From the NCBI GenBank assembly GCA_030700025.1, contig JAUYKI010000008.1, positions 1-57,912 of the forward strand: DNA of 57,912 bases, read 5' to 3'. This stretch comes from a bacterium. Its GTDB lineage: Bacteria > Patescibacteriota > Minisyncoccia > UBA6257 > 02-FULL-45-10c. Made by a program: the position numbers and the translations under genes. The notes under the pieces were generated by a model. That model was not told the DNA's origin. It saw only the letters and a list, made by a program, of their open reading frames with translations, and did no database searches. Below, piece after piece: positions 168 to 35,717 of this stretch (its first letter is position 1; each line of letters opens with the position of its first letter).

Positions 168-599
168 CTAAAACCGAACTGGAATCCGGAGCTCATCATC
201 ATGCTCCGGCAAACCGGATGGATTGTCTTTCTGTAAAATTAAAATTCCTTGTTTTCCTTTCGGCTTTGGAAAAATTAGTTTCGCCCGGAACGGCACAAAG
301 TTTTCCGTCATCCATTCTCCCTGGGCCTGAACCGGCATCACTGCCAGCTGGCTTCCGTCCTCGTCCAAAAGCTTCGCCGGAAAAGACGCTTCAAAAAACC
401 AATACCCGCGCGCTTCGCCGGAAATTAACAGCGGGCTGGTGATTTTCTGGTTCGGCAAAGGGCTGGTCGCCTTAATCAATCCGGCTTTTTCCGCCGGCAT
501 GGACGGCAAAACATTATCTTGCCATCGCAAGCCGAAATAAACGCCCGCGAAAACAATTATAAAAACCAAAGCCAGCCAGGATTTAGAGCTGAATTTCAC
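168..599 (-). CDS. Secreted/membrane-anchored Gmad2-type immunoglobulin-like domain protein
   Basis: N-terminal TM/signal helix. Motif ITSPLLISGEARGYWFFEASFP...GEWMTENFVPF is typical of the Gmad2 Ig-like domain. Confidence 0.6.
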   Translation of the reverse strand: MKFSSKSWLALVFIIVFAGVYFGLRWQDNVLPSMPAEKAGLIKATSPLPNQKITSPLLISGEARGYWFFEASFPAKLLDEDGSQLAVMPVQAQGEWMTENFVPFRAKLIFPKPKGKQGILILQKDNPSGLPEHDDELRIPVRF

Positions 600-3368: not shown

Positions 3369-3992
3369 CTAATTAATAAAAGCGCTTTCGTAAAGCGGGG
3401 TTTTATCATCTTTAAATCTAAAAATATATTCGGTACTATAAAACTTTTGAGTAAATAATTTAGTAGCAATAGTATATTTTATTAAAAATTTACATTCTAT
3501 AGAATTAAAATTTTGAGGGATTGGAAAAACAAAAACCATTTCTTCGCCATTGCCAATGATTATTTTTCCTGCTTCTGGGAGCGCCTGACTGTCCTTAGGA
3601 CAAAATATTGAGTCATTTATCACCTGGGCTGGTAAGATTCCGACATTTTTAATACGAAGCATAAAATCAGTAGCCGACGGATGAATGCTCTTAATTACTA
3701 AGTATGGCCTATTGCGCAACTCAAATTCTGTATTTGCTCTATTATTTTGTAAGTAGGAAAAATATATTGTTGGTAGGATAATAATTAATGGGATAATTAT
3801 TCCAATAGTTTGAATTATAAAACTTTTTCTACTCTCTAGTATATTTTTTCTGTCTTGTCTTTGTTGAGTAGAATTAGTAATTATAACATCATCTTTATTA
3901 TTGTATAGGGTTTCTAATTCCCTCTGAATCTTAAAAAGATTCCAATCTTCACCAAATAATTTTTTAAAACATTCTTTTATTCTATTTATCAT
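3369..3992 (-). CDS. Hypothetical membrane protein
   Basis: Long ORF with one clear TM helix (IIQTIGIIIPLIIILPTIYF). No recognisable motif. AT-rich. Confidence 0.5.
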   Translation of the reverse strand: MINRIKECFKKLFGEDWNLFKIQRELETLYNNKDDVIITNSTQQRQDRKNILESRKSFIIQTIGIIIPLIIILPTIYFSYLQNNRANTEFELRNRPYLVIKSIHPSATDFMLRIKNVGILPAQVINDSIFCPKDSQALPEAGKIIIGNGEEMVFVFPIPQNFNSIECKFLIKYTIATKLFTQKFYSTEYIFRFKDDKTPLYESAFIN

Positions 3993-4148: not shown

Positions 4149-4918
4149 ATGAAATTAAATCTTAACGAACAACTTGTAACTCATTACAAAAGCGCATCGC
4201 AAAAGGCGCGCATTTTAACAGAACAATGGGTTGATAATTCAATTTTTTGTCCGAATTGCGGACGATTGAATATAGACAAGTATCCAAATAATCAACCCGT
4301 TGCCGATTTTTACTGTTCGAATTGCAAAGAAGAATACGAGTTGAAAAGTAAGCAAAACACAATCGGTACAAAAATTGTAGACGGTGCGTATCGCACGATG
4401 CTTGAACGGCTGACAAGTAGTAATAACCCGAATTTTTTTCTGCTAAATTACGACTTATCAAATCTCGAAGTGATAAATTTTCTTGTTATTCCGAAACACT
4501 TTTTTGTACCAGAAATAATCGAAAAACGGAAGCCACTTTCGCCGACGGCTCAGCGTGCCGGTTGGGTTGGTTGTAATATCCTTCTACAAAGTATTCCGCA
4601 AACCGGTAAAATCTTTTTCATAAAAAATAAACGGATTGAGCCTAAAGAAAAAGTGCTTGCTGAATGGCAAAAAACACTTTTTTGCGAGAGGAGAAAGAAA
4701 TTTCTGCTAAGAGTTGGTTACTTGATACAATGCGAAGCATCGAAAAACTTGGAAAGCGTGAATTTATGCTTGAAGATATTTATGCCTTTGAAAAAGAATT
4801 GGGCAAACTTCACCCGGACAACAAGCACATTAAAGATAAAATCCGCCAGCAATTACAATTTTTACGCGATAAGGGCTATCTTGATTTCGTATCGCGTGGA
4901 TATTATCGGCTTATATAA
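4149..4918 (+). pseudogene. DpnI-like methyl-directed type IIM restriction endonuclease, split by a frameshift in a T6 tract (4678..4683)
   Basis: N-terminal part is frame 4149... (YKSASQKARILTEQWV..FCPNCG...PVADFYCSNCKEEYELKSK..GAYRTMLERL..NNPNFFLL...RKPLSPTAQRAGWVGCNI). The C-terminal winged-helix part continues in the -1 frame (ORF 4664..4918: FLREEKEISAKSW...HIKDKIRQQLQFLRDKGYL). Confidence 0.8.
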
Positions 4919-4924
4919 GAGAAT

Positions 4925-5104
4925 ATGACGAATCGAGATTTACAAACACAATACGACAAAATTTATTCTTATTTTAAAACTACTTACGAGCATTTTAGTG
5001 ATTTAGAATGGAACGGAAAAATTTTATTTGTTTGGAAAGACGAAAATATTACAGAAAAATATTCACTAAAAGATTTAACAGGATTAATTTTTAATGAGAC
5101 ATAA
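4925..5104 (+). CDS. Small hypothetical protein (59 aa, below the ORF-track cutoff)
   Basis: ATG 4925 to TAA 5104, immediately after the DpnI-like gene. No motif. Confidence 0.3.
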   Translation: MTNRDLQTQYDKIYSYFKTTYEHFSDLEWNGKILFVWKDENITEKYSLKDLTGLIFNET

Positions 5105-5176
5105 TAAATTAAGAAAATATAAAATTATAGAAAAATAAAAAAACCTCCTTTGGAAATTTTATGTTAAACTAAATTT

Positions 5177-5602
5177 ATGCCAGGGGTATCAAATCAAAAA
5201 ACTGAAGCGGCGCTTCGTGATAGTCTTGAAAAAAAAGGGGGGTTTAAATTAAGTCGGCAGTTAAAAAATGGCGAAACGGGTCCCGATATTATAGCCATAG
5301 AGAATAACAGCAAAGAATTCTACATAGAAGTTATCGGTTATAAAAAATCGCCACCAGCACGATCGCGAGATTTTTATACTGTATTTTTTGGAGCTATTTC
5401 TAGAATAAAAGATGGCGCCAAGCATTGTGTTATTGCCTTACCTGATTTATTTGAAATTGGTTTGCCGGCTCGCGTTCGTCAATATGGTAGATTGGCTTGG
5501 CAAAGAATTGGTCAAGCATTTCCGGAATTAGAAATTTGGCTCGTGGACGTTGATAAGAAAGAATATAAGAAAACTAAATGGAATGATTGGCTTAAAAATT
5601 GA
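5177..5602 (+). CDS. Hypothetical protein, possibly with a PD-(D/E)XK nuclease-like fold
   Basis: GPDIIAIE....YIEVIGYKK resembles a degenerate PD..ExK motif. No other signature. Confidence 0.45.
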   Translation: MPGVSNQKTEAALRDSLEKKGGFKLSRQLKNGETGPDIIAIENNSKEFYIEVIGYKKSPPARSRDFYTVFFGAISRIKDGAKHCVIALPDLFEIGLPARVRQYGRLAWQRIGQAFPELEIWLVDVDKKEYKKTKWNDWLKN

Positions 5603-6473: not shown

Positions 6474-6507
6474 AACATTCCAACATTCTGCAGAATGTTG
6501 GAATGTT
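6474..6507. repeat. Palindrome family copy (type A)
   Basis: AACATTCCAACATTCTGCAGAATGTTGGAATGTT, a perfect 34-bp palindrome. Confidence 0.9.
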
Positions 6508-6562
6508 GTGAATACGCCAGACGGGTGGCGTATTCAGCCTTAACGGAAAAATTAAGCAAAAA

Positions 6563-6592: not shown

Positions 6593-6765
6593 GATATATC
6601 CGGCGGGGCTCCCGTTCCCGCAACGCCGTCAAGCGGCCGTAGACTGGGGAGATTAACTACATCAGATATTACTATTCAAAGCGATTTCAAGGAGGTTTTA
6701 GGACGCGAAGACGTTACTAAAAAAGTAGCAAAGCCTCAAGAATTTGTCAAAATACTTAGAAACAT

Positions 6766-6799
6766 AACATTCTAACATTCTGCAGAATGTTAGAATGTT
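6766..6799. repeat. Palindrome family copy (type A variant) overlapping the stop codon of ArsR-1
   Basis: AACATTCTAACATTCTGCAGAATGTTAGAATGTT, a perfect 34-bp palindrome. Confidence 0.9.
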
Positions 6800-7059
6800 T
6801 GCATAAACTTTAAAAATGATTTTCCGTAAGGCGAGAGCGAATGGGTAACCTGGCGGCCTTGATACTTTTTGTTTAAAAGACCGGCGTTAACTAAAGAGCG
6901 GGTATGCTGGGATATAGTTTTAAAATTACCGTTAAGCTCATTAGCAATCCCTTCAACTGTAATGCCATCTCTTTGATTTACGGTGTATATAATAGCTATG
7001 CGCCAATGATTGGCAGCTCCCTTAAAATAACGCTCTAATTGCTTTGGTGTTTTTCCCAT
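6790..7059 (-). CDS. ArsR/SmtB-family winged-helix transcriptional regulator (paralog 1)
   Basis: FKGAANHWRIAII....ITVEGIANELNGNFKTISQHTRSLVNAGLLNKKYQGRQVTHSL matches the ArsR HTH pattern. Contains no Cys. Confidence 0.8.
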   Translation of the reverse strand: MGKTPKQLERYFKGAANHWRIAIIYTVNQRDGITVEGIANELNGNFKTISQHTRSLVNAGLLNKKYQGRQVTHSLSPYGKSFLKFMQTF

Positions 7060-7084: not shown

Positions 7085-7120
7085 CAACATTCCAACATTC
7101 TGCAGAATGTTGGAATGTTG
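7085..7120. repeat. Palindrome family copy (type A), 26 nt upstream of the ArsR-1 start and just downstream of the ABC-F stop
   Basis: CAACATTCCAACATTCTGCAGAATGTTGGAATGTTG, a perfect 36-bp palindrome. Confidence 0.9.
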
Positions 7121-7142: not shown

Positions 7143-8612
7143 TTAAAGCTCCTCCAAATCTAAAATTTTATCAATTCGGATTTGTTTAATAAATTCCGGG
7201 ACGTGGCTGACTAAAATCATTCCGCCCGCGTATTTGTCCAAAGCCGCGGCAATTATCGGAATATGCCGGAAGTTAATATGGTTAGTCGGTTCGTCCAGAA
7301 TCAGCAATCCCGGCTTTTGAAGCGCCAGCCGCGCGAATGCCACCAATCCCTTCTGGCCTTCGGATAAATTCCCGATTTTTGCCCGCAAGATATGCTCGTC
7401 AATTAAAAACCCCGAGGCAATGGAGCGGAGCCGTTCCTGGGTCATGTCCCACTCCATAAGATCGCTGCCTGCCGATGCCAGCGACTCATACACGGTGTCT
7501 TCAAAGTTCAGAGTAGAGAAGTCCTGGCGGTAATAGCCGACCCGGATGCCCTTAGTAATGTGTTCGCCTTTAGCGTGGCCGGTTGCCAATTTTTCCAAAA
7601 GAGTAGTTTTGCCGATTCCGTTCGGACCGGTTAAAAGCAGATGTTCGTTTTTCTTTAAAATAACATTTACTTTTTTAACTGTTGGTTTGTGGTTTTTTAT
7701 CACGGAAACCGCGGTTAATTCCAAAAGCTGTCCGCTGATGTCCTCCTGGCAGGGGATAACAAACTTTCGGATGGTTTTATCTTCCTGGCGGACGTCCACC
7801 ATTTCTTCTTCCAATTCCTCAATTTTTTCCCGCATTTTCCTTGCCACGTCCCGCATGTGCCCGCCTTTTTGCCCGAAAAATCCTGCCTGCACCTTGCGGT
7901 GCGCGATATCGCTTTCCAGCCGGGCATTTTTTCTCCGTTCATTTTCCAGCCGGACTTTTATCTGCTCCACCACGTCAAAATAGTTTCCGACGTATTGTTC
8001 CACTTTCCGGGTAAAAATATCCAGATACAAAACGCCCTGGGTAAACGCGTTAAGGAAATCGGCATCATGGGAAATAACCACGCAGGTTTTTTTATAGTCT
8101 ATTAAAAATTTAGTCAGATGGGCGATGCCGGATTTGTCCAAGTTATTAGTTGGCTCATCCAGCAGAAGCAAATCCGGGTCCTGAATCAGCGCCGACGCCA
8201 AAAGAAGCCGCGCCTGCTGTCCGCCGGAAAAAGATTTAATTATCCGGTCATGCGGGGCTTTTAAGTTGACCACCTCCAAAACATCGTCAATCCGCGGGTC
8301 AATATCGTAAACCTTTTGAGAGAAGCATTTCTCAAAAAACTTTTGGATAGTCAGTTCCATCTGATCTCTGGGAATTACCTGTCTGGCGGTGGCAACGGTC
8401 AAGCCGTCCTCCAGGCTGATCTTCCCGGAATCCGGCTTCAACGCTCCGGTAATCAGCTGGAACATCGTGCTTTTACCGGCGCCGTTCTGCCCCATGAGAG
8501 TAACTTTCGCCCCCCGGCGGATGGAAAAATCCGCCTCTTTTAAAATTGGCTTATTATGCCCGAATTCAAAATTAACATTATTGAACCTTACGATTACTTC
8601 TTCTTTAGCCAT
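7143..8612 (-). CDS. ABC-F family ATPase (two ABC domains, no TM domain)
   Basis: Walker A GQNGAGKST and GPNGIGKTT. Signatures FSGGQQARL and LSEGQKGLV. Walker B LLLLDEPTN and LLILDEPTN. Basic interdomain linker. Confidence 0.9.
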   Translation of the reverse strand: MAKEEVIVRFNNVNFEFGHNKPILKEADFSIRRGAKVTLMGQNGAGKSTMFQLITGALKPDSGKISLEDGLTVATARQVIPRDQMELTIQKFFEKCFSQKVYDIDPRIDDVLEVVNLKAPHDRIIKSFSGGQQARLLLASALIQDPDLLLLDEPTNNLDKSGIAHLTKFLIDYKKTCVVISHDADFLNAFTQGVLYLDIFTRKVEQYVGNYFDVVEQIKVRLENERRKNARLESDIAHRKVQAGFFGQKGGHMRDVARKMREKIEELEEEMVDVRQEDKTIRKFVIPCQEDISGQLLELTAVSVIKNHKPTVKKVNVILKKNEHLLLTGPNGIGKTTLLEKLATGHAKGEHITKGIRVGYYRQDFSTLNFEDTVYESLASAGSDLMEWDMTQERLRSIASGFLIDEHILRAKIGNLSEGQKGLVAFARLALQKPGLLILDEPTNHINFRHIPIIAAALDKYAGGMILVSHVPEFIKQIRIDKILDLEEL

Positions 8613-8665: not shown

Positions 8666-8699
8666 AACATTCCGACATTCTCAAGAATGTTGGAATGTT
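8666..8699. repeat. Palindrome family copy (type B, imperfect) overlapping the stop codon of ArsR-2
   Basis: AACATTCCGACATTCTCAAGAATGTTGGAATGTT. Confidence 0.85.
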
Positions 8700-8956
8700 C
8701 TTATAAACTTTATAAACGTTTCTCCGTAGGGCGAAAGGGTATGTCCCACGTTGCGGCCCTGATATTTTTTATTGAGAAGTCCCGCTTGAACTAGCCGTCT
8801 CGTATGCTCAGAAACGGTTTTGAAATTTTTATCCAAATTTTCAGAAATCATTTCCAGGGTAATGTCGGGCCTTTGAGAAACTAAAAGCAAAATCTCAATA
8901 CGGGAGTGATTAGCCGCGCCCTTGAAATGCCTTTCTAATTGCTTCGCCGTTTTCAT
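8681..8956 (-). CDS. ArsR/SmtB-family winged-helix transcriptional regulator (paralog 2)
   Basis: Collinear with 6790..7059, with a large fraction of identical residues by eye (QLER.FKGAANH.RI....NFKT.S.HTR.LV.AGLLNKKYQGR.V.H.LSPYG). Confidence 0.8.
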   Translation of the reverse strand: MKTAKQLERHFKGAANHSRIEILLLVSQRPDITLEMISENLDKNFKTVSEHTRRLVQAGLLNKKYQGRNVGHTLSPYGETFIKFIRTFQHS

Positions 8957-8972
8957 GTCTGTTTATCCTACC

Positions 8973-9010
8973 ACAACATTCCGACATTCTCAAGAATGTT
9001 GGAATGTTGT
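8973..9010. repeat. Palindrome family copy (type B), about 17 nt upstream of the ArsR-2 start and downstream of the 1041-aa gene
   Basis: ACAACATTCCGACATTCTCAAGAATGTTGGAATGTTGT. Confidence 0.85.
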
Positions 9011-9048: not shown

Positions 9049-12000
9049 TTAATCGGAACCCAGCATTCTTTTTTCCAGGCTGGAGATCAGCGAAACGCGT
9101 TCACGATTCAATCGCGAGTAATCGGAGATATGGTTTAAGCAATTCCGCAGAAGCTGGGGGTGATGGTTCAGCAGTTTCTGGAAATCATTTTTGCCGATAA
9201 ATAAGGCAACGGTTTCTTTATGGGCTTTTACGGTGCAAATCGCCCCAGTGTTTAAAATAACGGACCGTTCGCCAAAAAGCCCGAATTCTAATGGTTTGTC
9301 AGATAATTCAATCGGCTCAGTCTCGGAATCGGGTTTGGCCTGGCTTAGGATAACGGAGCCGCGGATTAGGATATAAACGCCCGCGGTTTTTTTGCCTTGC
9401 CGGATCAAACAATCGCCGGCGCTGAATTTCTTTTCCGAAGCTTTGTCGGCTAAAAATATCCGTATATCTTCGGGGTTAATTCCGTTAAATATCTCCAATC
9501 CAAAAACATTATTACCAACGCTGTTTTTTCTTTGAATCAAAACATTAGCGAGAAGCCTCCGGAGCTTTGGATAGGCGGTTTTCAACTTTCCTAAATCCTT
9601 TCTTTGGATTTCCAACAGGCGGCAGGAAGTTTCCGCTATCACTGTGGCAGTCCGCTTCCGATTTTTTTTCTCAAATACAATCGCTTCGCCGATGATAGCG
9701 CCCCGGTTGCTGATTTTCGCGATTTCCACTCCGCCTACCAAAACCCGGCAGGTTCCCTGGACTAAAATAAATAAAGAATTGGCTGGGTCTCCCTCGGAAA
9801 CGATAACCCCGCCCTTTGGGCGATCCACGGCTTTAAGATGCTGGGCTAAAATCCGCTGTTCACGGCGGTTGGATTTTAGATAATCAACCAGAGGAATATT
9901 TTTAAAATCCAAATTTTCACCAATCGGATAATCGGGCAGTTCGCACAGTTTTTCAATTTCCGCGCCCAGCATTTCCGGATTTATTCTGCCGGACCGGTAT
10001 TCTTCCACCCAGTATTTTAATTTTTCATTCAGTTCATAGAGGCTCGGAAAATTTCGATTGATGATTTTTAATTGGTCATTCCAATAAGAACGCCGCGGGA
10101 GGCACTTTTCCGAATCCAGGGCATCCAGCATTTTAAAAAGCGCGCGGATAAAGTTTTTCGTTTCGGATAAGAAGCCTCTCAATTCCTTATGCGTAACCAC
10201 GGCTTTTTCTTTTATAAAAATTTCCCCTTGGTTAACCTCTCCTTGGCTGATTAGCTGGGGTTCATAAACAATGCCCGGCTTCACCTGTGCCAAAGCGGTT
10301 TTTCTAATCAAGTAATTTAAAGCCCGCTCTTCTCTTTTGGACGAAAGGTTATAAAGCCCGGCCAGATGCCGGAATAAGTTAGACATGTCCAACAAGGCCG
10401 GATCTTGACCATCTGGAACAGGATTATATAAATTCAAGCTCGTTTTTTGAGGGCTGATTTTTTTGGCTAATTTTTCAAATTGGTCAGACAGCGCCAGGAC
10501 TTGTTTTGAGTGCTTAGAGAAAAAAATAGGGGAGCGGGCATCGTCTACGCCAAGCAGGGACAAAAGATAATTCCCTAAATATCGGCGCCTTTGCGCGGAA
10601 AATTGTTTTTCCACATCCGGGTTTTTTATTCCTTTTACTTTTGCCAGTTGCCGCAAAATTTTGATAAAGCCCGCTCCCTCGTAGCCAAAAAGGTTTTCAG
10701 AATACTTGCCGGAAGCGGAATGGTACGGACCCCGGTATTTCGTGAAAGAAACAGTTTCCGGGTCAATCAAATGGCCGGTCAGTGAATAATTTCCGACTGA
10801 CCATGCTCCCATTAATATCCGATAGGCAAAATATTGCGCGTCTAATTTGGCGTATTCGTCCAGAACTTTTGGAAAATCAACCGCAATGGACGGGGAATAT
10901 TCAATGTGGCTGGGCCGGTCCAGCGCGCCATCGTCAATCCGCACTAGCAACGCCGAAGGAATCGGATTGGCGCTCCATTTATATTGTTCGGTTTCTTTAA
11001 GCGCGATAACTACGGGGTGATGGACGGCATTTTTAGTAAAGTGATTCATCCACCTGGAAAGCACTACCCGCCGGAATGATCCCACTAATTCCATTTTTCC
11101 GGTGCTGTGGCTGGGAATCAGGCTAACACAAAGAGTTGTTTTACCGACGCCCATGACATTAAAATTCTTTCCGTAATAAACCGCTCTTCCGGAACCGAGA
11201 TTCCCGCTTAATCCAATGCCCGTAGAATCTTTTTGCCGGTCCGCGTAAACCGTGATTGGTTTGGAAGCCGGATTTTTATAGTTGAGCGCTATCGCGAAAT
11301 TCCGGACTTGTTCCGCCAAATCGCCTTCGTAGCCGCGATTTTTAAAATACGCCTGATCCGTATAAACTATTTCGTAATCTTTCGGATCCAGCCGCCGCGC
11401 CGTTTGCGGAACAAAAATAGATTTGCCCAATCTTTGCATAGCCAAGGGCATTTCCGCTAAATCGCTGGCCAAGTCAATGTAAGGTTTCCGAGCAATAATC
11501 CACCAAGCCGGATCGCCCTGCCGGCCGAAAGATTTATCCCAATATTGCTGTTTCAGGTAATTTTCGTAATAATCCCGCATTAATTCTATAACAATGAATC
11601 CGCTGTTTTGGCGTTTGGTTAATTGTTTTAAGGCTAATTTTTGGCTCGGGTATTGGCTGATGATAAACAAGTCGGGTTTTAATTTTTGGACAAAATCTTT
11701 CCAAAGGACGATCGTGGCCAAAACTCCGTGAATATAATCCCGGTTGCTTACGGAATCATAAAGTTTTTTAATGCTGGGCGGAACTTCCCATCCCGCTTCT
11801 CTTTCTTTGGAAAATAAAGAGGGCTCTTTTCCGCGCATGGCAAACGCTACCGCCATATCGTCAAACGGATGATTAGACAGCAGGGCATCCACCCGCGAAG
11901 GAATATCCTGGCCGATTTGCACGTCCTGTAAAAATTTTCTGACTAATTTTACGGAGGCTCGCGGCAAGATTTGTTTATATAATTTTTCCACGTGCGCGGC

Positions 12001-12610: not shown

Positions 12611-12681
12611 TGCCGGATCATCTAATGGTAGGATAGCGGACTCTGAATCCGCTCATCTTGGTTCGAATCCAAGTCCGGCAG
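12611..12681 (+). tRNA. tRNA-Gln (anticodon CTG)
   Basis: Manual cloverleaf: acceptor TGCCGGA/TCCGGCA (U1:A72, G73 as in bacterial tRNA-Gln), D arm ATCT..GGAT, anticodon stem GCGGA/TCCGC with loop CTCTGAA, and T arm CTTGG-TTCGAAT-CCAAG. CCA is not encoded. Confidence 0.85.
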
Positions 12682-12796
12682 CACCAGTCAGCGCAGTATC
12701 GAGGGACCGAGACCCTTCGGTTCTAGACCGAGGCGTCTCAAACTCACTGACCTCTTTTTCCTACAATGTCATACCGGCTGAGCGCCGTATTCAAAC

Positions 12797-12823
12797 CAAA
12801 AAATCGCCTTAGGCGATTTTTTT
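12797..12823. terminator. Bidirectional rho-independent terminator
   Basis: AAAAAATCGCC-TTA-GGCGATTTTTTT. Confidence 0.65.
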
Positions 12824-12934
12824 GGTTTACATTGCCTGTCAAAGTTTATAAGATGGGCCCCTGAAATTTTTAAGGTAGTAAATTTTTATTTTTTTAAACT
12901 ATTTCAATTGAAACACCCCCCCCTCCATTCCTTC

Positions 12935-14664: not shown

Positions 14665-15066
14665 CTATTTCAAAAATTTAACAATTTCATTAACCGCCTT
14701 ACTCGGATTTTTCTTTATTTCATGTTCCCAAATTCTAAAAATCTTCCACCCTTGTTTTTTATAGTATTTAGAAACTTCTTTGTCCCTTGCCGTATTCTTC
14801 GCAATTTTTTGTTTCCAATAAGTTTTATGATTAGTTGGAATGCGACAATGTTTTTTACAGCCGTGCCAAAAACAAGAGTCAACAAATATAACAGTTTCAT
14901 GCCGTTTCAAAACAATATCCGGCTTGCCAAAGTATGTGCCGGAGTTTTTGCGATAGCGAAAACCGCGTTTCCAAAGTGCTTTGCTAAATAATGCTTCAAT
15001 CTTGCTGTCTCGGCTTTTTATCCGAGACATTATTTCGCTTCGCTTTTGTTTTGAAACAGTATCCAT
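14665..15066 (-). CDS. vsr: Very short patch repair endonuclease (Vsr)
   Basis: RSEIMSRIKSRDSKIE...FRYRKN....GKPDIVL.....IFVDSCFWHGC...P..N..YW..KI..N..RD matches the Vsr family. Confidence 0.9.
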   Translation of the reverse strand: MDTVSKQKRSEIMSRIKSRDSKIEALFSKALWKRGFRYRKNSGTYFGKPDIVLKRHETVIFVDSCFWHGCKKHCRIPTNHKTYWKQKIAKNTARDKEVSKYYKKQGWKIFRIWEHEIKKNPSKAVNEIVKFLK

Positions 15067-15088
15067 ACATACGCTAAATTTAAATTTA

Positions 15089-16156
15089 TCAATCAGCGGG
15101 CGTGACTATTTTATCGTACCTGCGCTTCGCCATAAACGGCACAATTTCTTTACTTGATGGAAATTCTCCGACAAATTCTCGCCCAACATCTTGCAGTAAT
15201 TTTGCGCCGAGATTAGCCCTGTATTTTTTACTCAAACAAAGTTTATACCAATCATCTAGATCGTTAATGGTAATGACGCCTTGTATCCGCTCACTCCACC
15301 CAACTTGTTTGAGCAATGCCTCAATCGATTCTCGCTCGGTATCAACACAAACAATCACAATTCTGTCAGAAGTTATATCATCCGCGATATCTTCCATGAG
15401 TTCCGGGGTAAGCGTAAGATGCTTAACTTGAATTGCCGGACCAAAGTTAGCCCAAATGTCTAAACCTCTGTCTGAGGCATTTGTTACGCCGACGCGATAC
15501 AGTGCGGCGGGCGAAATAAGTCGAGTTTGCTTTGCGTCAATGCCAAGAACCATTTTAATAAACCTTTCAAAGTCCTTCAAAATTTCCTTATCTTTATTTC
15601 CAATCTCCAAAGTTACTTGCGCTTTCAACGCGCGGACTATTGTCGTAAAAAGAGCATAAACTAAAATTTCGTACATTTTATCTACGCTACGGCGCAACCC
15701 AGGCGTAGTTTGAAAAATAGAAACCAGCTTTTTGAGATCAAAGGTGTCCGGCGTTGATTTTCTGATATAGTCCTCAACTTCTCGAACCGATGAAAGGCGC
15801 GCTTCCAACGCTTTGTAAATATGTGCCTCAACAACACCCTTGCCTTTCCTATTTGTCTCGCCAAGTTTTACAAGCAATTCAGGCGGCATGGCGTTGGCTT
15901 CAAAAACATTGTCCTGATATTTTTGGCTTGAGGTGCTTCGCCGGCCAACCAAAAGCAAAGACACTTCGTCTCGCCAACGCTTGGAAATATTTCGGTATGA
16001 TTCTAAGTCGCTCAAATCCCAGCCCCGCTCTGTTCTGTGATGATACAAAATTTCGGCAATCTGAATTGGTTTATATAAATGAACACGCGATTTGCGTATT
16101 ACCAAGTCCAACGCTATTTTTGAAAGATTGCTTTTAGTGGGCATAAATTTTTTCAA
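15089..16156 (-). CDS. Type II restriction endonuclease partner of the m5C methyltransferase (family not determined)
   Basis: 355-aa ORF overlapping the MTase gene by 23 nt and followed by vsr. No motif could be assigned by eye. Confidence 0.55.
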   Translation of the reverse strand: MKKFMPTKSNLSKIALDLVIRKSRVHLYKPIQIAEILYHHRTERGWDLSDLESYRNISKRWRDEVSLLLVGRRSTSSQKYQDNVFEANAMPPELLVKLGETNRKGKGVVEAHIYKALEARLSSVREVEDYIRKSTPDTFDLKKLVSIFQTTPGLRRSVDKMYEILVYALFTTIVRALKAQVTLEIGNKDKEILKDFERFIKMVLGIDAKQTRLISPAALYRVGVTNASDRGLDIWANFGPAIQVKHLTLTPELMEDIADDITSDRIVIVCVDTERESIEALLKQVGWSERIQGVITINDLDDWYKLCLSKKYRANLGAKLLQDVGREFVGEFPSSKEIVPFMAKRRYDKIVTPAD

Positions 16157-17147
16157 TTTTTTCCTCTCTATTAAATAAATTTCTTTGTGCGGTCTTATGT
16201 AGTTGCGGTTTTTGATTCATCGCTTGCATCATCGCGCGCGCGACAGCCTCAATTTTCGGAATAACAACGCTATTGCCAGCTTGTTTTCTAACCTGTGTGT
16301 CAGGCACAACCATTTTGAAAGTATCGGGATAGCCCTGTAAGCGCAACATTTCTCTCGGCGTAAGACGCCTTTCTCCGTTTACCGTCAAATAATTATACGA
16401 GCCGTTGGCGCGCAAAGCGCAAGAAAAAGGATGTATGCCAAGATTGCCGCCTTTATTTTCATGCAATACAACAGGACGAACGGTAATCTTTTTGTTTTGC
16501 TCTTTTAACTTTCTTTCAAGTTTTTTACGGAAGTAGTCGCTTAAAAAATGTTTTTTATCAATCTGATCGTTCGGCTCCAAAATATTAGAAAGTGTTTTTG
16601 TTTCTGCCCCGTTTTTGGGAAATTCAAAAGGATAATTATCTTTGAAGCCGACAATCATTATTCGCTCTCTTTTTTGCGGAACACCGAAATCAAGCCCATT
16701 GAGAACCTTGTAATGAATAAAATATCCTAAATTTTCCAAATGCTCTAAAATAACTTTGAAAGTTTTACCCCCATCATGAGTGGTGAGCTGTTTTACATTT
16801 TCCAACAAAAACGCTTTCGGTTGTTTCGCTTTCAAAATTCTTTCAACATCAAAAAATAAAGTCCCGCGCGTGTCGGCAAATCCCAATTTATTGCCAATAA
16901 TACTAAACGCTTGGCAAGGAAAACCGCCAGTCAATATATCGTGATCTGGCACTTCATCGGCAACAACTTTCGTGATGTCCCCGAAAGGTTTTTCGCCAAA
17001 ATTTGCTTCGTACATGACTTGGCACGGCTCGTCCCATTCGGAAGTGAAAACGCACTTGCCACCAACTCGCTCAAAAGCGATACGGATACCGCCAATGCCC
17101 GCAAACAGGTCTATAAATTTGAATTTTTTACCATTTCTATTTGTCAT
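16134..17147 (-). CDS. dcm: DNA (cytosine-5)-methyltransferase
   Basis: FIDLFAGIGGIR (motif I), GGFPCQAFS (IV), ENV (VI), QKRERIMIVGF (VIII), GNSVVIP (X). Confidence 0.95.
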   Translation of the reverse strand: MTNRNGKKFKFIDLFAGIGGIRIAFERVGGKCVFTSEWDEPCQVMYEANFGEKPFGDITKVVADEVPDHDILTGGFPCQAFSIIGNKLGFADTRGTLFFDVERILKAKQPKAFLLENVKQLTTHDGGKTFKVILEHLENLGYFIHYKVLNGLDFGVPQKRERIMIVGFKDNYPFEFPKNGAETKTLSNILEPNDQIDKKHFLSDYFRKKLERKLKEQNKKITVRPVVLHENKGGNLGIHPFSCALRANGSYNYLTVNGERRLTPREMLRLQGYPDTFKMVVPDTQVRKQAGNSVVIPKIEAVARAMMQAMNQKPQLHKTAQRNLFNREEKIEKIYAH

Positions 17148-20815: not shown

Positions 20816-21784
20816 ATGCTTATTGATGATGTAAAAATTAGAATCAAGGCGGGCAACGGCGGAAACGGCGGGGTGGCTTTTAATAAAAATTTAATGAGTT
20901 TGGGTCCGGCGGGCGGAAGCGGAGGCCGCGGAGGCAGTATTTTTGCCGAAGGAGTTTCAGATTTAAGCACCTTAAGCCCGTTTCGCTACAAAAAAGAATT
21001 TCACGCGCAAGACGGCGAACACGGCCAAATGCAATTCCGCGACGGAAAAGACGGCCAAGATTTAATTTTTAAAATTCCCATCGGCACCATAGTGCATAAT
21101 TTAAATACTAATAAGGATGTAGAAATTACGAAAATAGGGGAACGAGTTTTACTGGCCCAGGCCGGACGCGGCGGAAAGGGAAACTTCCATTTCCGCTCTC
21201 CCCGCAATACTTCGCCGACCCAATTCAAACACGGCACGCCAGGGGAAGAATTTGAACTGCGCCTGGAACTGAAGCTTATTGCCGATGTCGGATTTGTGGG
21301 CTTTCCTAATGTAGGAAAATCCAGCTTACTAAATGAATTGACCCGAGCCCAAAGCAAGGTAGCTAATTACCCCTTTACCACGCTGGAACCAAATCTCGGA
21401 GTGTATTACGAACTAATCTTAGCGGACATTCCCGGGCTGATTGAGGGATCGTCCGCGGGCAAGGGGCTGGGCATAAAATTTTTACGCCACATTGAACGGA
21501 CTAAAATTCTTTTTCATTTTGTTTCCGCGGAATCGGAAGATCCGGTTAAGGATTATAAAACTATCCGGAAAGAGCTGGGGGATTATAATAAAGCCCTGCT
21601 TCAAAAATCCGAGCATCTTTTTTTGAGCAAGAGCGATATAACGTCTCCGGACGAAATAAAAAAGAAATTGGCAAAGCTTAAAAAGATAAATCCTGAAGCT
21701 CTGGCGATTTCCATACATGACGAAAAAAGCCTGGAAGCAGTAAAGAAAATCTTGAACCGTATCCAGAAGGAAAAATTTATTTAA
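20816..21784 (+). CDS. obg: GTPase Obg/CgtA
   Basis: Glycine-rich Obg fold (IRIKAGNGGNGGVAFNKN...GGSGGRGGSI), G1 GFPNVGKSSLL, G3 DIPGLIEG. Confidence 0.9.
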   Translation: MLIDDVKIRIKAGNGGNGGVAFNKNLMSLGPAGGSGGRGGSIFAEGVSDLSTLSPFRYKKEFHAQDGEHGQMQFRDGKDGQDLIFKIPIGTIVHNLNTNKDVEITKIGERVLLAQAGRGGKGNFHFRSPRNTSPTQFKHGTPGEEFELRLELKLIADVGFVGFPNVGKSSLLNELTRAQSKVANYPFTTLEPNLGVYYELILADIPGLIEGSSAGKGLGIKFLRHIERTKILFHFVSAESEDPVKDYKTIRKELGDYNKALLQKSEHLFLSKSDITSPDEIKKKLAKLKKINPEALAISIHDEKSLEAVKKILNRIQKEKFI

Positions 21785-21786
21785 GT

Positions 21787-22033
21787 AGAGAACCTCTTCT
21801 CCGTAGCGCGGGCCGAGGACTGAGCGGGCAGGGTGCCCCGCCTGCCTATTTCTTGGAAACAGAATAAATCAGCTCCAGCGGCTGATTTTTCTTCGCCCTC
21901 GGCGTATTTTGTGGTCCAAGCAAAATACGCCTGCGGGATGTTTCCCGAAATAGGCAGACGGGGCGAGCGAAGTCCGAAACCCAGTGAAAACTCACGCTGG
22001 GAGTTTGAGCGGTAGCGGGAGAAGAGGTTCTTT
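21787..22033 (+). repeat. ~247-nt long imperfect hairpin element carrying copy 2 of the ~90-nt repeat (core 21855..21945). Candidate structured RNA or MITE-like element
   Basis: Terminal inverted repeat AGAGAACCTCTTCTCC / GGAGAAGAGGTTCT. Inner stems are GCCTGCCTATTTC/GAAATAGGCAG and GGAAACA/TGTTTCC, enclosing two hairpins. Confidence 0.75.
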
Positions 22034-22043
22034 ATTTATAAAT

Positions 22044-22072
22044 AAAAAACCCGCCTTATCAGCGGGTTTTTT
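22044..22072. terminator. Bidirectional rho-independent terminator (3' of cspA)
   Basis: AAAAAACCCGC-CTTATCA-GCGGGTTTTTT. Confidence 0.75.
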
Positions 22073-22076
22073 ATGG

Positions 22077-22277
22077 TTACACTTTAGAAACGTTAGTTGC
22101 ATTAGGGCCTTTATCGCTCTGAGCAACTTCGAATTCTACTTGGTCTCCTTCTCTCAACTCATTAAACTGCACATTGCGCAATTCTTTTGAATGAAAGAAA
22201 AGGTCTTTATCGGCTCCCTCTCGAGAGATGAAGCCAAATCCGCGGTCGGTTAACCGGGCAATTTTTCCTCGTTCCAT
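22077..22277 (-). CDS. cspA: Cold-shock protein (CspA family)
   Basis: GKI.....RGFGFI (RNP1), DLFFH (RNP2), EGD.VEFEV. Confidence 0.9.
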   Translation of the reverse strand: MERGKIARLTDRGFGFISREGADKDLFFHSKELRNVQFNELREGDQVEFEVAQSDKGPNATNVSKV

Positions 22278-24979: not shown

Positions 24980-25835
24980 TATCTTGGTAGCCATTGAGAA
25001 AATCTTTCCAAGCCATCGGACTCTTGCCCTCCGGCTGAACCCTTTTTAATTCTAAATTCTCATTCTGAAAATCGGCCTCTAATAACTTAAGCTTAATTTC
25101 TTTTCCGTTTTTTAATTTTAGAATGGTGAAAACGCCCGGCTCTGGATTCAATGCCCGGATTTTCAACCAAACCTGCCGGGGCGGATCGTTTTTTAAATCC
25201 ACCAGCCCATCTGATAAAGAAAACTTTTTCGTAAAAGTGGCTTCGTTGTCATTTTGCGGCCGAGCTTTAATTTCGCCATTTAAAAACTTGGGCAAGGTTT
25301 CCACTAATAAGTTACCGCTTGATTCCGCTAGCTCTCTCATTAATTCTTCGTAACTTTGATTTTTGATTTTTGATTTTTGATTTTTTAAAATTGGCCCGTT
25401 ATCCACTTTTTCATCCATTAAATATAAAGAGGTTCCGGTTTCCGGCTCATCCTCCAGTATCGCGCTTTGAATAGGGGAAGCGCCGCGGTATTTCGGCAAA
25501 AGCGATGGGTGAACGCCGATTGTGCCCAACTTAGGAATGTCCAAAATATCTTTTTTAAGAATCTTAGAATAAGCGGCAACTATAAAAAAATCCGGTTTGT
25601 AATTTGTGATTTGTAATTTGTGATTTGCCAAAGTTTCTGGCTGTAAAACTTCAATATTATACTTTTCAGCCGTAACTTTGGCCGGCGGGGGAGTCATAAT
25701 CTTTTTTCGGCCGACCGGAGCGTCCGGAGAGCAAACTACCACTGCCGGAATAAAGCCCGCGGTGATTAATCTTTCTAAAATAATCTCCGCAAACTCCGGA
25801 GAACCAAAAAATACAAATCGTGGGTAATTGGTCAT
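24957..25835 (-). CDS. fmt: Methionyl-tRNA formyltransferase
   Basis: FFGSPEFA..IL..L.......VV..PD.P.GR......PP.K..A......V.QP, then HPSLLP.YRG..PIQ.AI. Confidence 0.85.
   Translation of the reverse strand: MTNYPRFVFFGSPEFAEIILERLITAGFIPAVVVCSPDAPVGRKKIMTPPPAKVTAEKYNIEVLQPETLANHKLQITNYKPDFFIVAAYSKILKKDILDIPKLGTIGVHPSLLPKYRGASPIQSAILEDEPETGTSLYLMDEKVDNGPILKNQKSKIKNQSYEELMRELAESSGNLLVETLPKFLNGEIKARPQNDNEATFTKKFSLSDGLVDLKNDPPRQVWLKIRALNPEPGVFTILKLKNGKEIKLKLLEADFQNENLELKRVQPEGKSPMAWKDFLNGYQDKFLIPNS
25355..25386. repeat. Heptanucleotide tandem array (unit GATTTTT, ~4 units) inside fmt
   Basis: TTTGATT x4, encoding KNQKSKIKNQ. Same unit as the gltX array at 35451. Confidence 0.85.
25596..25630. 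repeat. Heptanucleotide tandem array (TTTGTAA/TTTGTGA, 5 units) inside fmt
   Basis: TTTGTAA TTTGTGA TTTGTAA TTTGTGA TTTGCCA, encoding ANHKLQITNYKP. Confidence 0.85.
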
Positions 25836-30520: not shown

Positions 30521-30624
30521 TATTATATAACCTCGCTATGCGGGGTTTTTTATTTTTCTCTTTTCCAACAACCCAACCAAGAAGAAGGTTGGGTTTTATA
30601 AATCTAAATAAAAATAAAAGTGAA

Positions 30625-30768
30625 GCCATGCCACCTCTCCGAAACCCCCGCAGGCATTTGAGCTTGGTCCGCCGTTATCTTTGCGGAGCAACCGGCGGTC
30701 AAATGCCGAGGACTAAGCGAAGTGAGCCGCAGGAGCGAACTGAGCGGGTTGAGGAGAGGTGGCATGGC
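30625..30768. repeat. 144-nt GC-rich long hairpin element related to the arms of the 21787 element
   Basis: 16-bp terminal inverted repeat GCCATGCCACCTCTCC / GGAGAGGTGGCATGGC. Inner stems are GGCATTTGA/TCAAATGCC and CCGCCG/CGGCGG. Shares GCCGAGGACT.AGCG..GAGCGGG motifs with 21810..21830. Confidence 0.7.
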
Positions 30769-30784
30769 TGAGCGAGATGAAATA

Positions 30785-31549
30785 TTAAGAAAGATATCCA
30801 ACTTTCTTCAGCCAGCCCTCATTTTCCCATTCCCATAATTTTTTAGCGCTAAGAAAAGCCGAAAAATCATTTTTCCAGTAGGGGAATTCCTGCAATTCAG
30901 TGGCTCCTTGCAAATCTGACCATTCATGCTGGTCTTCCGCGCACAAAGACATTCTTCCTTTGCGAATTTTATTATTTCCGCCCTTGGGCCGCATAGTGGC
31001 TCCGCAAATATAGCAATTTTTAACCTGGTCTATCCGCAAGATCCAACGAGTCTGCAAAGTAGGGAAGTCCGGCAAAAGAGCTTCCATATAAGCCGAGGTT
31101 TGAAGGTTATAGTCGCGATAGATGGCCTGGGAGGTCTTTATATCCATAACCCCGAATTTACCGTTAAAAAGCGCGATTAAATCCACCGTGCCGGCATAAC
31201 GATGGTCTTTATGATGCACCCGCCGTTCTACCAGCTCCTTATTCACCTGCAGGCTATTACTGCTCAAAAACAGCTCAAAGGCGTCTATGGAAGGCTTGAT
31301 GTCCGGAGCCACTTCCGGAGCTTCGCCTAAAAGAATCTTTTCTACGGCCTCATGGACTTTCGTGCCTTCGGTGGCAGAAAGTTTAGCAACATCTTGGGCA
31401 GCTTTATAACTTTTTGCCGCGCCATAAAACATATAAAGCGCGGGCTTGGCTTTTATTTCAACTATTTTTGTGACACGGGGATACCATTTGCCATCAATGT
31501 CATAACCGCATGATTCTTTAAAATTTTCTTCGCTGGTAAAAAAATTCAT
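30785..31549 (-). CDS. PD-(D/E)XK nuclease superfamily protein (Cas4/RecB-exonuclease-like core) with an inserted Cys-containing segment
   Basis: GTKVHEAVE, YAGTVDLIAL..GKFGVMDIKTS, QTSAYMEAL fit the D..D/ExK..QxxxY pattern. Confidence 0.55.
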   Translation of the reverse strand: MNFFTSEENFKESCGYDIDGKWYPRVTKIVEIKAKPALYMFYGAAKSYKAAQDVAKLSATEGTKVHEAVEKILLGEAPEVAPDIKPSIDAFELFLSSNSLQVNKELVERRVHHKDHRYAGTVDLIALFNGKFGVMDIKTSQAIYRDYNLQTSAYMEALLPDFPTLQTRWILRIDQVKNCYICGATMRPKGGNNKIRKGRMSLCAEDQHEWSDLQGATELQEFPYWKNDFSAFLSAKKLWEWENEGWLKKVGYLS

Positions 31550-34275: not shown

Positions 34276-35717
34276 AGCGCTATATCCAGCCTTCTAAGCG
34301 ATTCGTCTTTTCCTAAAATATCCATTATTTCAAACGGTCCGGGCGATTTATCCTTTCCCGATAAGGCTGCCCGCATAGGCCACAATACCTCTCCCCTGCC
34401 CCGAGTATCTGCCCACGGCATAAGCTTCGCCTCTAAATTGGCTTTATCAAATTCGTCCAATAAAAAGCCTTTTAAAATTTCTCGCGCCACCCGCAAATTT
34501 TCCATAATCCGCTCCGGCTCCGTATTTTTCCAAATTAAAAGCGATGGGTCATAATCCGGCAACTCAAAAAAGAAATTATTAATATCTTTGAATTCATCTA
34601 ATTTGCTTATTCTTTCCCGAGAAGAAGCAATCAGCTTTCGAGTCAGGGGCAAATTCCCAAATTCTTCTCCAAAAATTTCTTTTATTATCTCGAGTAAACG
34701 GCCTTCATCGGCAGTCTTAATATATTGGGCGTTCAGCCAATTTAATTTCTCCACGTTAAACACCGCTCCGGATTTTTGCGCGCGGGATAAATCAAAATTC
34801 TGGATTAATTCTTCTTCGCTTAAAATTTCCCGGTCATCGGATAAATGCCAGCCCAACAAAGCGATAAAATTCATCAGCGCCTCCGGCAAATAGCCGGCTT
34901 TGCGGTATTCTTCCAAAGAAGTCGCGGAATAACGCTTAGACATTTTACTGCGGTCCGGATCCAGAATCAAAGGCAAGTGGGCATAAACCGGCGTCGAAAA
35001 TCCCAACGCTCGCTGAAGCAAAATTTGCTTAGGCGTATTGGCAATGTGGTCTTCACCCCGGATTACGTGGCTGATTTTCATTTCAAAGTCGTCTATCACT
35101 ACGGCAAAATTATACAAAGGTACTCGCAAACCCTTGGCAATCGCTAAATCTCCGAATAATGAGGTATCAAAAACAATATCGCCCCGGATAAGATCGGAAA
35201 ACTGGACTTTTTCTTCCGGAATAATAAATCGGATTACTTGGGCATCGGCTTCGGAAACTTTCCGGCTTCGGCACTTGCCGCTGTACTTCGGGGCAATGCC
35301 TCTTTCTGATTGCTCGTTTCTTTCTTTTTCTAGTTCTTCTTTAGTACAAGAACAATAATAAGCGTCGCCTTTTTCTAAAAGCTGTTTTAAATATTTTTCA
35401 TAAATATCCAACCTTTCCGATTGCCTATACGGCCCGTATTTACCAGCGTAATTTTGATTTTTGATTTTTGATTTTTGATTTTGAGCGTCAGCGATTGGTC
35501 CTTCGTCCCACTCCAAGCCAAGCCACCGTAAACCGCTAATAATATCTTTTTCCCACTTAACTTCCGACCGTTCAAGATCAGTATCTTCAATCCGCAAAAT
35601 AAACTTACCGCCGATATGCCGGGCAAAAAGCCAGTTAAACAAGGCCGTTCTGGCAGTGCCAATATGCAACGCCCCGGTTGGCGACGGCGCAATTCTTACT
35701 CTGATATTATTAGTCAT
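34251..35717 (-). CDS. gltX: Glutamyl-tRNA synthetase
   Basis: RIAPSPTGALHIGTARTALFNWLFAR (HIGH), KMSKR, class I GluRS layout. Confidence 0.9.
   Translation of the reverse strand: MTNNIRVRIAPSPTGALHIGTARTALFNWLFARHIGGKFILRIEDTDLERSEVKWEKDIISGLRWLGLEWDEGPIADAQNQKSKIKNQNYAGKYGPYRQSERLDIYEKYLKQLLEKGDAYYCSCTKEELEKERNEQSERGIAPKYSGKCRSRKVSEADAQVIRFIIPEEKVQFSDLIRGDIVFDTSLFGDLAIAKGLRVPLYNFAVVIDDFEMKISHVIRGEDHIANTPKQILLQRALGFSTPVYAHLPLILDPDRSKMSKRYSATSLEEYRKAGYLPEALMNFIALLGWHLSDDREILSEEELIQNFDLSRAQKSGAVFNVEKLNWLNAQYIKTADEGRLLEIIKEIFGEEFGNLPLTRKLIASSRERISKLDEFKDINNFFFELPDYDPSLLIWKNTEPERIMENLRVAREILKGFLLDEFDKANLEAKLMPWADTRGRGEVLWPMRAALSGKDKSPGPFEIMDILGKDESLRRLDIALQKLESNN
35451..35484. repeat. Heptanucleotide tandem array (unit GATTTTT, ~5 units) inside gltX
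   Basis: ATTTTG ATTTTTG ATTTTTG ATTTTTG ATTTTGA, encoding AQNQKSKIKNQNY. Confidence 0.85.

Follow-up and report, generated by a model that had tools for sequence, protein, structure and literature searches.

Small palindromic repeats 3' of genes in a Paceibacteria contig: members of a probable family of non-coding interspersed elements

Why does a strongly base-paired sequence of about 90 nucleotides (nt) recur directly downstream of three different genes within 58 kb of a bacterial contig, and why is one of its copies buried in a hairpin of about 250 nt after obg? The question is raised by contig JAUYKI010000008.1 (assembly GCA_030700025.1, Patescibacteriota), the whole 57,912 nt of which are referred to here as the window. 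An earlier inspection of the letters alone, the sequence-only reading, proposed for the copy after obg either an element like a miniature inverted-repeat transposable element (MITE) inserted into another palindromic element, or a large structured RNA. Our analysis points to interspersed repeats of Paceibacteria that are small, non-coding and heavily base-paired, form a family restricted to this lineage, and come and go at intergenic sites. We regard this explanation as probable, and by analogy the family would be of the same general kind as the REP/BIME, ERIC, Correia or MITE elements.

The 90-nt sequence, termed the core, is present in three copies that are 99–100% identical, and two sub-patterns taken from it have three exact matches each in the window, against none expected from shuffled sequence. 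Copy 3 carries a single G>A change that disrupts one pair of hairpin B, and copy 2 has one additional T (GATGTTTCC). The minimum-free-energy structure of the core consists of a closing stem, hairpin A and hairpin B (−39 kcal/mol, z-score −5.4 as RNA; z −6.0 when folded as DNA); copies, coordinates and fold are thus all as the sequence-only reading had given them. Hairpins A and B are unrelated to each other in sequence. The features of the three copies, scored where indicated with a covariance model (CM), are:

17–106, minus strand: core copy 1, 90 nt; exact pattern match; CM 119 bits
107–128, minus strand: 5' arm of the outer stem of copy 1, GCTCCGCCAGATTACCTACG; the full stem is visible in the L022 copy described below
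21855–21945, plus strand: core copy 2, 91 nt; exact pattern match; CM R1 111 bits; closing stem GGAAACA/TGTTTCC
21866–21888, plus strand: hairpin A of copy 2, AAATCAGC/GCTGATTT, extending to 13 pairs
21896–21937, plus strand: hairpin B of copy 2, base included
21835–21966, plus strand: extended core of copy 2, about 132 nt, i.e., the core with its own outer stem GCCCCGCCTGCCTATTTC/GAAATAGGCAGACGGGGC, as delimited by fold and alignment
45532–45621, minus strand: core copy 3, 90 nt; exact pattern match; CM 112.5 bits
45516–45637, minus strand: copy 3 with its flanking stem GGCTATATCTTTT/AAAAGACATAGCC, a 13-bp inverted repeat found by folding with flanks

The core copies are real, but the full repeat unit is longer than the 90 nt first assigned to it, each core lying within a further stem. 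In copy 2 this outer stem resembles that of copy 1 and of the L022 copy (GCTCCGCCAGATTACC/GGCAACCATGGCGGAGC), and a repeat finder extends the similarity between copies 1 and 2 to 111 nt. The 3' arm of the outer stem of copy 1 is truncated by the contig end, where bases 1–16 read CTACGGCAACCATGGC. Sense and antisense strands of the extended elements fold equally well, and G-U pairs account for 1–3 of the 45–52 pairs in three of them, both of which are expected for a palindrome at the DNA level. The strand folding data demonstrate no RNA-specific constraint, and DNA and RNA structure are indistinguishable here.

The organization of the locus after obg is as follows:

21776–21783, plus strand: left direct repeat, TTTATTTA, overlapping the last obg codons; candidate target-site duplication
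21784–22030, plus strand: composite block, 247 nt, bracketed by the 8-bp direct repeat
21784–21834, plus strand: left arm of the outer element, G+C-rich; terminal inverted repeat AGAGAACCTCTTCTCC; 10-mers GCCGAGGACT and ACTGAGCGGG in common with 30624–30769
21967–22030, plus strand: right arm of the outer element; terminal inverted repeat GGAGAAGAGGTTC; 10-mer TCCGAAACCC in common with 30624–30769
22031–22038, plus strand: right direct repeat, TTTATTTA
22040–22073, both strands: native bidirectional intrinsic terminator serving obg (plus) and the cold-shock gene 22077–22277 (minus); hairpin −17.1 kcal/mol

The 252-nt stretch 21785–22036 folds as a single, unbroken long hairpin (−130.6 kcal/mol, z −8.6), and the opposite strand is nearly as stable (z −8.5). 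Both the long-range stems GCCTGCCTATTTC/GAAATAGGCAG and the 16-nt terminal inverted repeat (1 mismatch), which had been noted from the letters, are present in this fold. Without the core, the flanking 156 nt (21787–21854 and 21946–22033) have a G+C content of 60%, compared with 43% for the window.

Obg homologues assign the window to Patescibacteria, class Paceibacteria, the named matches being Paceibacterota, Parcubacteria and related candidate groups. The closest Obg proteins share 97% and then 80% identity with that of the window, and the first of them is encoded on L014, an ENA contig from another sample. The whole block is absent from L014, in which a single TTTGTTTA is followed by GGC and the terminator; the junction reads obg-stop TTTGTTTAG, GC and TAAAAAACCCGCC... 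(terminator), after which comes the cold-shock gene. Between TTTATTTA and TAAAAAACCC the window is longer than L014 by about 255 bases. Since the block is missing in a relative with a 97% identical Obg, the 247-nt hairpin is a presence/absence polymorphism rather than a fixed RNA gene, and the suggestion of a large structured RNA residing permanently at obg is not supported. The terminator 22040–22073 and the downstream cold-shock gene (CSD domain) are conserved in L014; judged from the sequences, the terminator lies outside the element and would mark the ancestral 3' end of obg.

A nested insertion best explains the copy after obg, with the extended core apparently sitting at the apex of a second, G+C-rich long-hairpin element. 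This corresponds to the other alternative raised at the outset, and it has been strengthened by the absence of the block from L014, by the occurrence of the core alone at two other loci, and by three 10-mers that the outer arms share with another long-hairpin element, E2 (30624–30769). The outer element has no second copy in the window, and a collinear local alignment of the outer element, E2 and a long hairpin on the contig of the L022 copy (5205–5447, see below) is not significant. The three exact same-strand 10-mers (GCCGAGGACT, ACTGAGCGGG and TCCGAAACCC) are matched by 0 of 500 shuffles, and they stand in a different order in the outer element and in E2, so that the two look like modular, rearranged relatives. 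By the strand assignment of the 10-mers, the nested extended core would lie in the opposite orientation to its host element. Insertion at TTTATTTA between obg and the terminator would have involved the 247-nt block as a whole or its two parts one after the other.

The element is not confined to the three near-identical copies. These were correctly counted from the letters, but the window holds a fourth, diverged member, and relatives are found on other contigs:

30624–30769, minus strand, window: E2, 146 nt, diverged; perfect 17-bp terminal stem AGCCATGCCACCTCTCC/GGAGAGGTGGCATGGCT; fold z −7.9
5039–5169, contig ENA ERZ4903055: the L022 copy, 90% identical over 128 nt
9209–9312, minus strand, contig L023: strongly diverged member; CM R1 31 bits, E ~2e-5; Obg 77% identical

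The L022 copy was found via a protein-representative search with a spurious open reading frame (ORF) that crosses the composite and led to P0247 (74 aa). ORFs crossing the repeat are spurious, as changes in the stems are compensatory and not codon-wise, and such 'proteins', e.g., P0247, deserve flagging in annotation. The contig of the L022 copy has a G+C content of 47% and, apart from the repeat, nothing in common with the window; a further stem, GCTCCGCCAGATTGCC/GGCAACCATGGCGGAGC (z −7.2), surrounds the core there. The covariance model R1 was built from four sequences, i.e., the three window copies and the L022 copy. CM matches to E2 cover window positions 30636–30755 (minus) with 17.9 and 12.8 bits, and the base of its hairpin B, CCTCGGC...GCCTGCGGG, is the same as that of the core, with the CCAAGC loop end kept. 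The L023 member, the same sequence of which is carried by contig L024, is located between cupredoxin and ferric-reductase genes. In the syntenic contig L026 the same two genes are present and the flanks align, but the orthologous spacer contains only a simple terminator-like hairpin; the comparison of L023 with L026 reads as a second presence/absence case.

Several further structures were seen beside these members. The hairpin in L026 (7690–7745, minus) consists of a plain stem, GGAATCCCGCTA...TAGCGGGATTTTT, followed by the near-repeat GGGATTTTTGCTATA/GGGAGTTTTGGTATA, and the stem resembles the outer stem of the L023 member, AAAAGTCCCACG/CGTGGGACTTTT, a likeness that may be a hint that the element lies inside a former terminator hairpin. 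On the contig of the L022 copy, a 243-nt G+C-rich long hairpin (5205–5447) is found beside the core-type element, between two convergent terminators; it has the terminal repeat ATAGAAACCCTCTCTCCA/TGGAGAAGGGTTTCTAT (z −7.3) and is similar in style to the outer element of the window, with no significant homology. The same contig has a stretch of about 270 nt (3421–3693) bounded by a 31-nt inverted repeat (87% complementary); to judge by eye, the stretch lies in two apparent tRNA genes of the minus strand. Window 12762–12835 (minus) reached 21.5 bits with the CM and was not counted as a member, the hairpin B motifs being missing. Its outline is that of the core, with a terminator-like hairpin (AAACCAAAAAAATCGCC...GGCGATTTTTTGGTTT) inside the closing stem CAATGT/ACATTG and a small second hairpin, and it may be an ordinary terminator or a degenerate relative.

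Comparison of the members assigns family-wide conservation to hairpin B only. Its 5-bp base has the consensus CYCUC/GNGRG with a 3' bulge, and its loop ends in CCAAGC, while the upper stem of B and the outer stems differ in sequence between members with pairing kept. The architecture, for which sequences were read and pairs checked by script, is:

Core and L022: base CCCUC/GCGGG, bulge U, upper stem of 11 bp, loop end CCAAG(C) present
E2: base UCCUC/GCGGG, bulge U, upper stem of 9 bp, loop end CCAAG(C) present
L023: base CUCUC/GAGAG, bulge UUC, upper stem of 9–10 bp, loop end CCAAG(C) present

The upper-stem sequences of the core, L023 and E2 are unrelated to one another, i.e., the stem has been completely re-paired. 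At shorter distance, the L022 copy differs from the window copies by 13 substitutions in total, counted by hand from the alignment. Eight of them make up four compensatory pair changes, three adjacent ones in hairpin A (CAGC/GCTG to CTTT/AAAG) and one in hairpin B (T-A to C-G). The others convert an A-C mismatch to a pair (1), open a loop-closing pair (1) or fall at unpaired positions (3); the four compensatory pairs were computed directly, whereas these remaining classes were counted by hand. In the four-sequence alignment 97.8% of the cells pair, four compensatory pairs are reached by 3 of 500 column shuffles, and slid controls give 0–1. Covariation, which the sequence-only reading had proposed to look for in homologues, is hence present, and it indicates that the element is under structural constraint, acting on DNA and/or RNA.

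The motif CTCGG-N8-38-CCAAGC derived from hairpin B has six occurrences in the window, compared with an expectation of 0.74; four belong to family members and two lie in coding sequence. Among the 26 loci fetched, it is present in L022, L023, L024 and one earlier chance locus. As a negative control, the pattern CCTCGG..CCAAGC..CCTGCGGG matched 61 IMG/VR contigs, none with a stem or CM match at the site; these are sequences of 62% G+C in which at most 5 of 7 stem positions are complementary, compared with 6–7 of 7 in family members.

That the element belongs to an already described RNA family (twister, RNase P fragment, signal recognition particle (SRP) RNA or a small RNA) or is an integron attC site we consider very unlikely. 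The loop of hairpin B, GGUCCAAGC, may resemble the conserved loop of some twister ribozymes. At gathering scores Rfam yields only the tRNA at 12611–12681 in the window, and at E≤10 there is nothing relevant on either strand of four members (twister, RNase P, SRP, 6S and tmRNA included), which bears out the initial failure to assign a known family. The 12-mer GGGCAGGGTGCC in the outer arm (window 21826–21837) is identical to a stretch of Escherichia coli rnpB, but the overall similarity is neither significant nor collinear, and an RNase P fragment was rejected. As imperfect palindromes located 3' of genes in a single orientation, the elements resemble attC sites; against this, RYYYAAC/GTTRRRY core sites are missing (the ends are GGAAACA/TGTTTCC), no cassette array or integrase was seen, and the copies are 9–24 kb apart beside housekeeping genes. 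Besides attC, template/variable repeats of diversity-generating retroelements and CRISPR were rejected on anatomical grounds, since core sites and an array are lacking, none of the copies falls within the 3' end of a coding sequence, and adenines are not where the copies differ.

The genes located 5' of the window members are:

168–599, minus strand: Gmad2-domain gene; copy 1 lies about 40 nt after the gene
20816–21784, plus strand: obg; copy 2 lies between the obg stop codon and the bidirectional terminator
30785–31549, minus strand: gene 5' of E2; E2 lies 16 nt after the stop codon, before terminator-like hairpins
45645–45965, minus strand: small membrane ORF; copy 3 lies between the stop codon and the bidirectional terminator 45463–45494 (hairpin −12.7 kcal/mol)

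The L023 member lies between two co-directional genes and the L022 copy between the terminators of convergent genes. In all five unambiguous cases (copies 1–3, E2 and L023) the element is in sense orientation just 3' of a gene, so that the rule stated from the letters for three copies holds and extends to the new members. Along the window the strand order of the copies is −, +, −, −, with no clear GC-skew switch, and replication direction as the cause of orientation is unsupported by the skew profile.

This arrangement is what a cis-acting RNA module of the 3' untranslated region (UTR) would show, maintained because selection acts on the RNA, multiplied through duplication or recombination, and serving in exonuclease protection, in termination or pausing, or in protein binding via the CCAAGC loop. 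We hold such a module to be the less likely explanation, yet one to be taken seriously, and it overlaps with the interspersed family, as REP and ERIC are both dispersed repeats and RNA stabilizers. Sense orientation is joined by the location of three members between a stop codon and the native terminator, by the compensatory changes, by the conserved loop and base of hairpin B, and by the resemblance of hairpin A, with its A- and U-tracts, to the terminators of the genome itself. Against a module of this kind, the two strands fold with equal stability and few G-U pairs, close relatives have no element at the same loci, and the copies in one genome are near-identical next to unrelated host genes. 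Furthermore, the L022 copy lies beyond the terminator of the upstream genes and is enclosed by two terminators, a place at which transcription should be low; the family as a whole does not conserve hairpin A; and the orientation in 5 of 5 cases corresponds to p ~0.03 only.

The resemblance of hairpin A to a terminator had been pointed out from the letters, and it is plausible for the core copies: the predicted hairpin (−11.5 kcal/mol) has 3 G-C pairs, an A-tract and a U-tract with the tail UUUUUCUUC, and a simple terminator scan flagged only its antisense version. It is not a conserved feature of the family, however: the stem consists almost wholly of A-U pairs in L022, and hairpin A has no conserved counterpart in L023 or E2. 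For the near-identical copies of the core, hairpin A with its U-run could terminate or pause transcription, either as a side effect or as a secondary use, and any member transcribed in the 3' UTR of the upstream gene would be bound to form a very stable stem-loop.

How, then, would an interspersed family move? Insertion would mostly take place in the short spacer between a stop codon and an intrinsic terminator. Hairpin B would be the site recognized by a protein that copies or moves the element, and this protein would be supplied in trans and not be encoded nearby. The variable outer stems would either be part of the element or represent hairpins in which it landed.

A more familiar mechanism is that of a classical MITE mobilized by a DDE transposase, with terminal inverted repeats bound by the enzyme, a staggered cut and a duplication of fixed length. 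The 16–17-nt terminal inverted repeats of the outer element and E2, the 8-bp direct repeat TTTATTTA around the composite, for which a relative has a clean empty site, and the small size (90–250 nt), non-coding nature and copy number (four members in 58 kb) all agree with it. The terminal repeats are, however, unrelated among members (AGAGAACCTCTTCTCC, AGCCATGCCACCTCTCC, GCTCCGCC... and AAAAGTCCCACG...), the conserved part, hairpin B, is internal, the core's own inverted repeat measures 7 bp only, the other five members have no consistent duplication, and no insertion sequence with matching ends is present within the window. We therefore regard a DDE-type MITE as improbable. The earlier proposal to look for target-site duplications in the flanks led to the 8-bp candidate at the composite; elsewhere, copy 1 has a possible CTACG/CCTACGG, and nothing clear (no duplication, or 2 bp only) is found at copy 3, E2, L022 and L023.

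This inconsistency of target-site duplications also weighs against the interspersed family that we favor, as do a number of other observations. Terminal repeats that vary around a conserved internal hairpin are the reverse of what DDE-type MITEs display. A Pfam scan of 30 of about 80 window ORFs, all neighbors of the copies included, revealed housekeeping, restriction-modification, ArsR-type regulator and ABC ATPase genes and no transposase or recombinase, and no such domains are encoded by the genes called next to the L022 and L023 copies. Orientation tracks the local gene (5 of 5) and not one replication direction, which hints that transcription or RNA could matter. The family comprises six distinct members only, three of them near-identical, so that the covariation rests on few independent events, and template-switch repair of palindromes could mimic selection. 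Finally, exact 19-mer scans of genomes and metagenomes yielded no further copies. Among GTDB representative genomes, GGAAACAGAATAAATCAGC gave nine matches, of which the two that were read (L004 and L002) are chance matches and the other seven, single matches in unrelated taxa, were taken as chance unread; in JGI metagenomes, TTTTGTGGTCCAAGCAAAA gave three matches, all read and all chance. These scans were poorly aimed, as both 19-mers span positions that differ in L022.

Other searches were likewise negative. Four scans of viral contigs with exact or near-exact core and outer patterns gave 0 matches, and blastn of the composite against phages and plasmids gave none. For copy 3, an empty site was sought via relatives of the neighboring 227-aa protein, and the contig of the 87% identical relative is not syntenic downstream; for copy 1, a 79% relative is too diverged for the junction to be defined.

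A further reading, which we put forward tentatively and consider doubtful, is a new class of element, defined by the bulged hairpin B, that specifically lands in, or builds, the apical loops of hairpins (terminators or family copies) and is oriented by upstream transcription. It would fit the similarity of the L023 outer stem to the plain hairpin in L026, the position of copy 2 at an apex and the hairpin flanks of copy 3, none of which is proof. If true, the streamlined genomes of the candidate phyla radiation (CPR) would harbor a mobile element that targets hairpin loops, or else a mobile RNA module of 3' UTRs that has a binding protein of its own.

That the repeats might be an assembly artefact or a chance similarity comes to mind since copy 1 is at the very start of the contig. 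We consider this next to impossible, as 0 chance matches are expected, homologues are present in independent samples (ERZ4903055, ERR4450749 and ERR4450750), and an independent Logan assembly (k=31) of run SRR13727534 from the same sample reproduces all three junctions (contigs L001, L017 and L020). At all three loci the Logan contig ends 25–30 nt, i.e., about k−1, inside the core, which is how repeats behave in de Bruijn assembly. The last 30-mer starts at CCTACGG at copy 1 and includes two flank bases at copy 3; the break points at these two copies imply further copies with those flanks in the sample.

Other features of the window were recorded alongside the repeats. A 33–35-nt perfect or near-perfect palindrome, AACATTCCAACATTCTGCAGAATGTTGGAATGTT, occurs in seven copies:

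1089–1121, palindrome AACATTCCAACATTCTGCAGAATGTTGGAATGTT
6474–6508, palindrome AACATTCCAACATTCTGCAGAATGTTGGAATGTT
6763–6799, palindrome AACATTCCAACATTCTGCAGAATGTTGGAATGTT
7085–7119, palindrome AACATTCCAACATTCTGCAGAATGTTGGAATGTT
8666–8699, palindrome AACATTCCAACATTCTGCAGAATGTTGGAATGTT
8972–9007, palindrome AACATTCCAACATTCTGCAGAATGTTGGAATGTT
48166–48197, palindrome AACATTCCAACATTCTGCAGAATGTTGGAATGTT

Five of these bracket two ArsR-type helix-turn-helix genes (6790–7059 and 8681–8956) and an ABC ATPase gene (7143–8612), and the palindromes look like operator sites of ArsR-type regulators or another small repeat family. Restriction-modification genes are found at 4149–4928 (DpnI-like endonuclease) and in a cluster at 14665–17147 (Vsr, HaeII-type endonuclease and C5 cytosine methyltransferase); the low G+C content of these regions (36–37%) suggests that they may have been acquired horizontally. 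A palindrome with 35-nt arms and no spacer (80% complementary) is located at 44633–44702, upstream of ORF 44775–45458, and the Logan contig L017 starts at its center. Runs of 6–7-nt units (GATTTTT / AATTTCT-like) are present at 25349–25384 and 35447–35482 and also at 25588, 43150, 51061 and 55257, two 36-nt stretches of them being 97% identical. A 65-nt direct repeat (1571–1635 and 2233–2297; 94% identical) lies inside neighboring minus-strand ORFs, one GreA-like (1132–1659) and the other at 1872–2339, which suggests a partial gene duplication.

The small, streamlined genomes of CPR/Patescibacteria are generally said to contain little mobile DNA. A full-text literature search found no description of MITE-like or REP-like repeats, or of the hairpin B motif, in CPR bacteria. 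The family is thus new, in a phylum without described palindromic repeats, while dispersed palindromic structured repeats are well known as a kind. In practical terms, the repeats break short-read assemblies of these organisms (three times here) and offer markers of strain-level variation; they may also reveal a hairpin-recognizing mobilization system or an RNA-binding factor in a phylum with few characterized regulators.

ERIC elements (also IRU) of Enterobacteriaceae and Vibrio are imperfect palindromes of about 127 nt in transcribed intergenic regions, with variable presence between close relatives, larger variants that arise by internal insertions, and compensatory changes that keep the stem. 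The repeats described here are similar in length (about 100–150 nt) and are likewise non-coding, palindromic, intergenic, variably present and subject to compensatory stem changes, but they belong to another phylum and have no sequence similarity to ERIC; conservation across genera is limited to an internal hairpin, the outer stems vary freely, and orientation is apparently fixed to the upstream gene. REP/BIME elements are hairpin repeats 3' of genes, often before terminators, in which structure is preserved over sequence and which stabilize the upstream mRNA; they are thought to be mobilized by RAYT (TnpA-REP), an enzyme that recognizes a folded single strand. Hairpin formation, a location just 3' of genes and conservation of structure rather than sequence are common to both. 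REP sequences, however, are 20–40 nt long, have a conserved GTAG head at the 5' end and number in the hundreds, arranged in pairs or clusters, whereas the present elements measure 90–250 nt, are two-hairpin or nested, and have GTAG in some flanks only, and no RAYT or Y1 transposase domain is encoded by the 30 ORFs scanned.

With MITEs (Correia/NEMIS of Neisseria, RUP of pneumococcus and nested MITEs) the family shares small size, a non-autonomous, multi-copy and intergenic nature, terminal inverted repeats, an empty site in a relative, a direct repeat at one copy, and the presence of one element inside another; it differs in that the ends are not conserved between members, the duplication is not constant and no parent insertion sequence is known. 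PATEs, which are derived from IS200/IS605, are comparable in that mobility would depend on a bulged imperfect hairpin, stems can covary and there is no regular duplication. They have, however, two similar subterminal hairpins, whereas A and B are unrelated; they insert 3' of a fixed tetra- or pentanucleotide, whereas the left flanks here are TACG, TCTT and TTCG; and their orientation is tied to replication, whereas here it follows the gene. Compared with these systems, the pattern of conservation is unusual: the internal hairpin is kept, the ends are free, and copies nest at the apices of hairpins.

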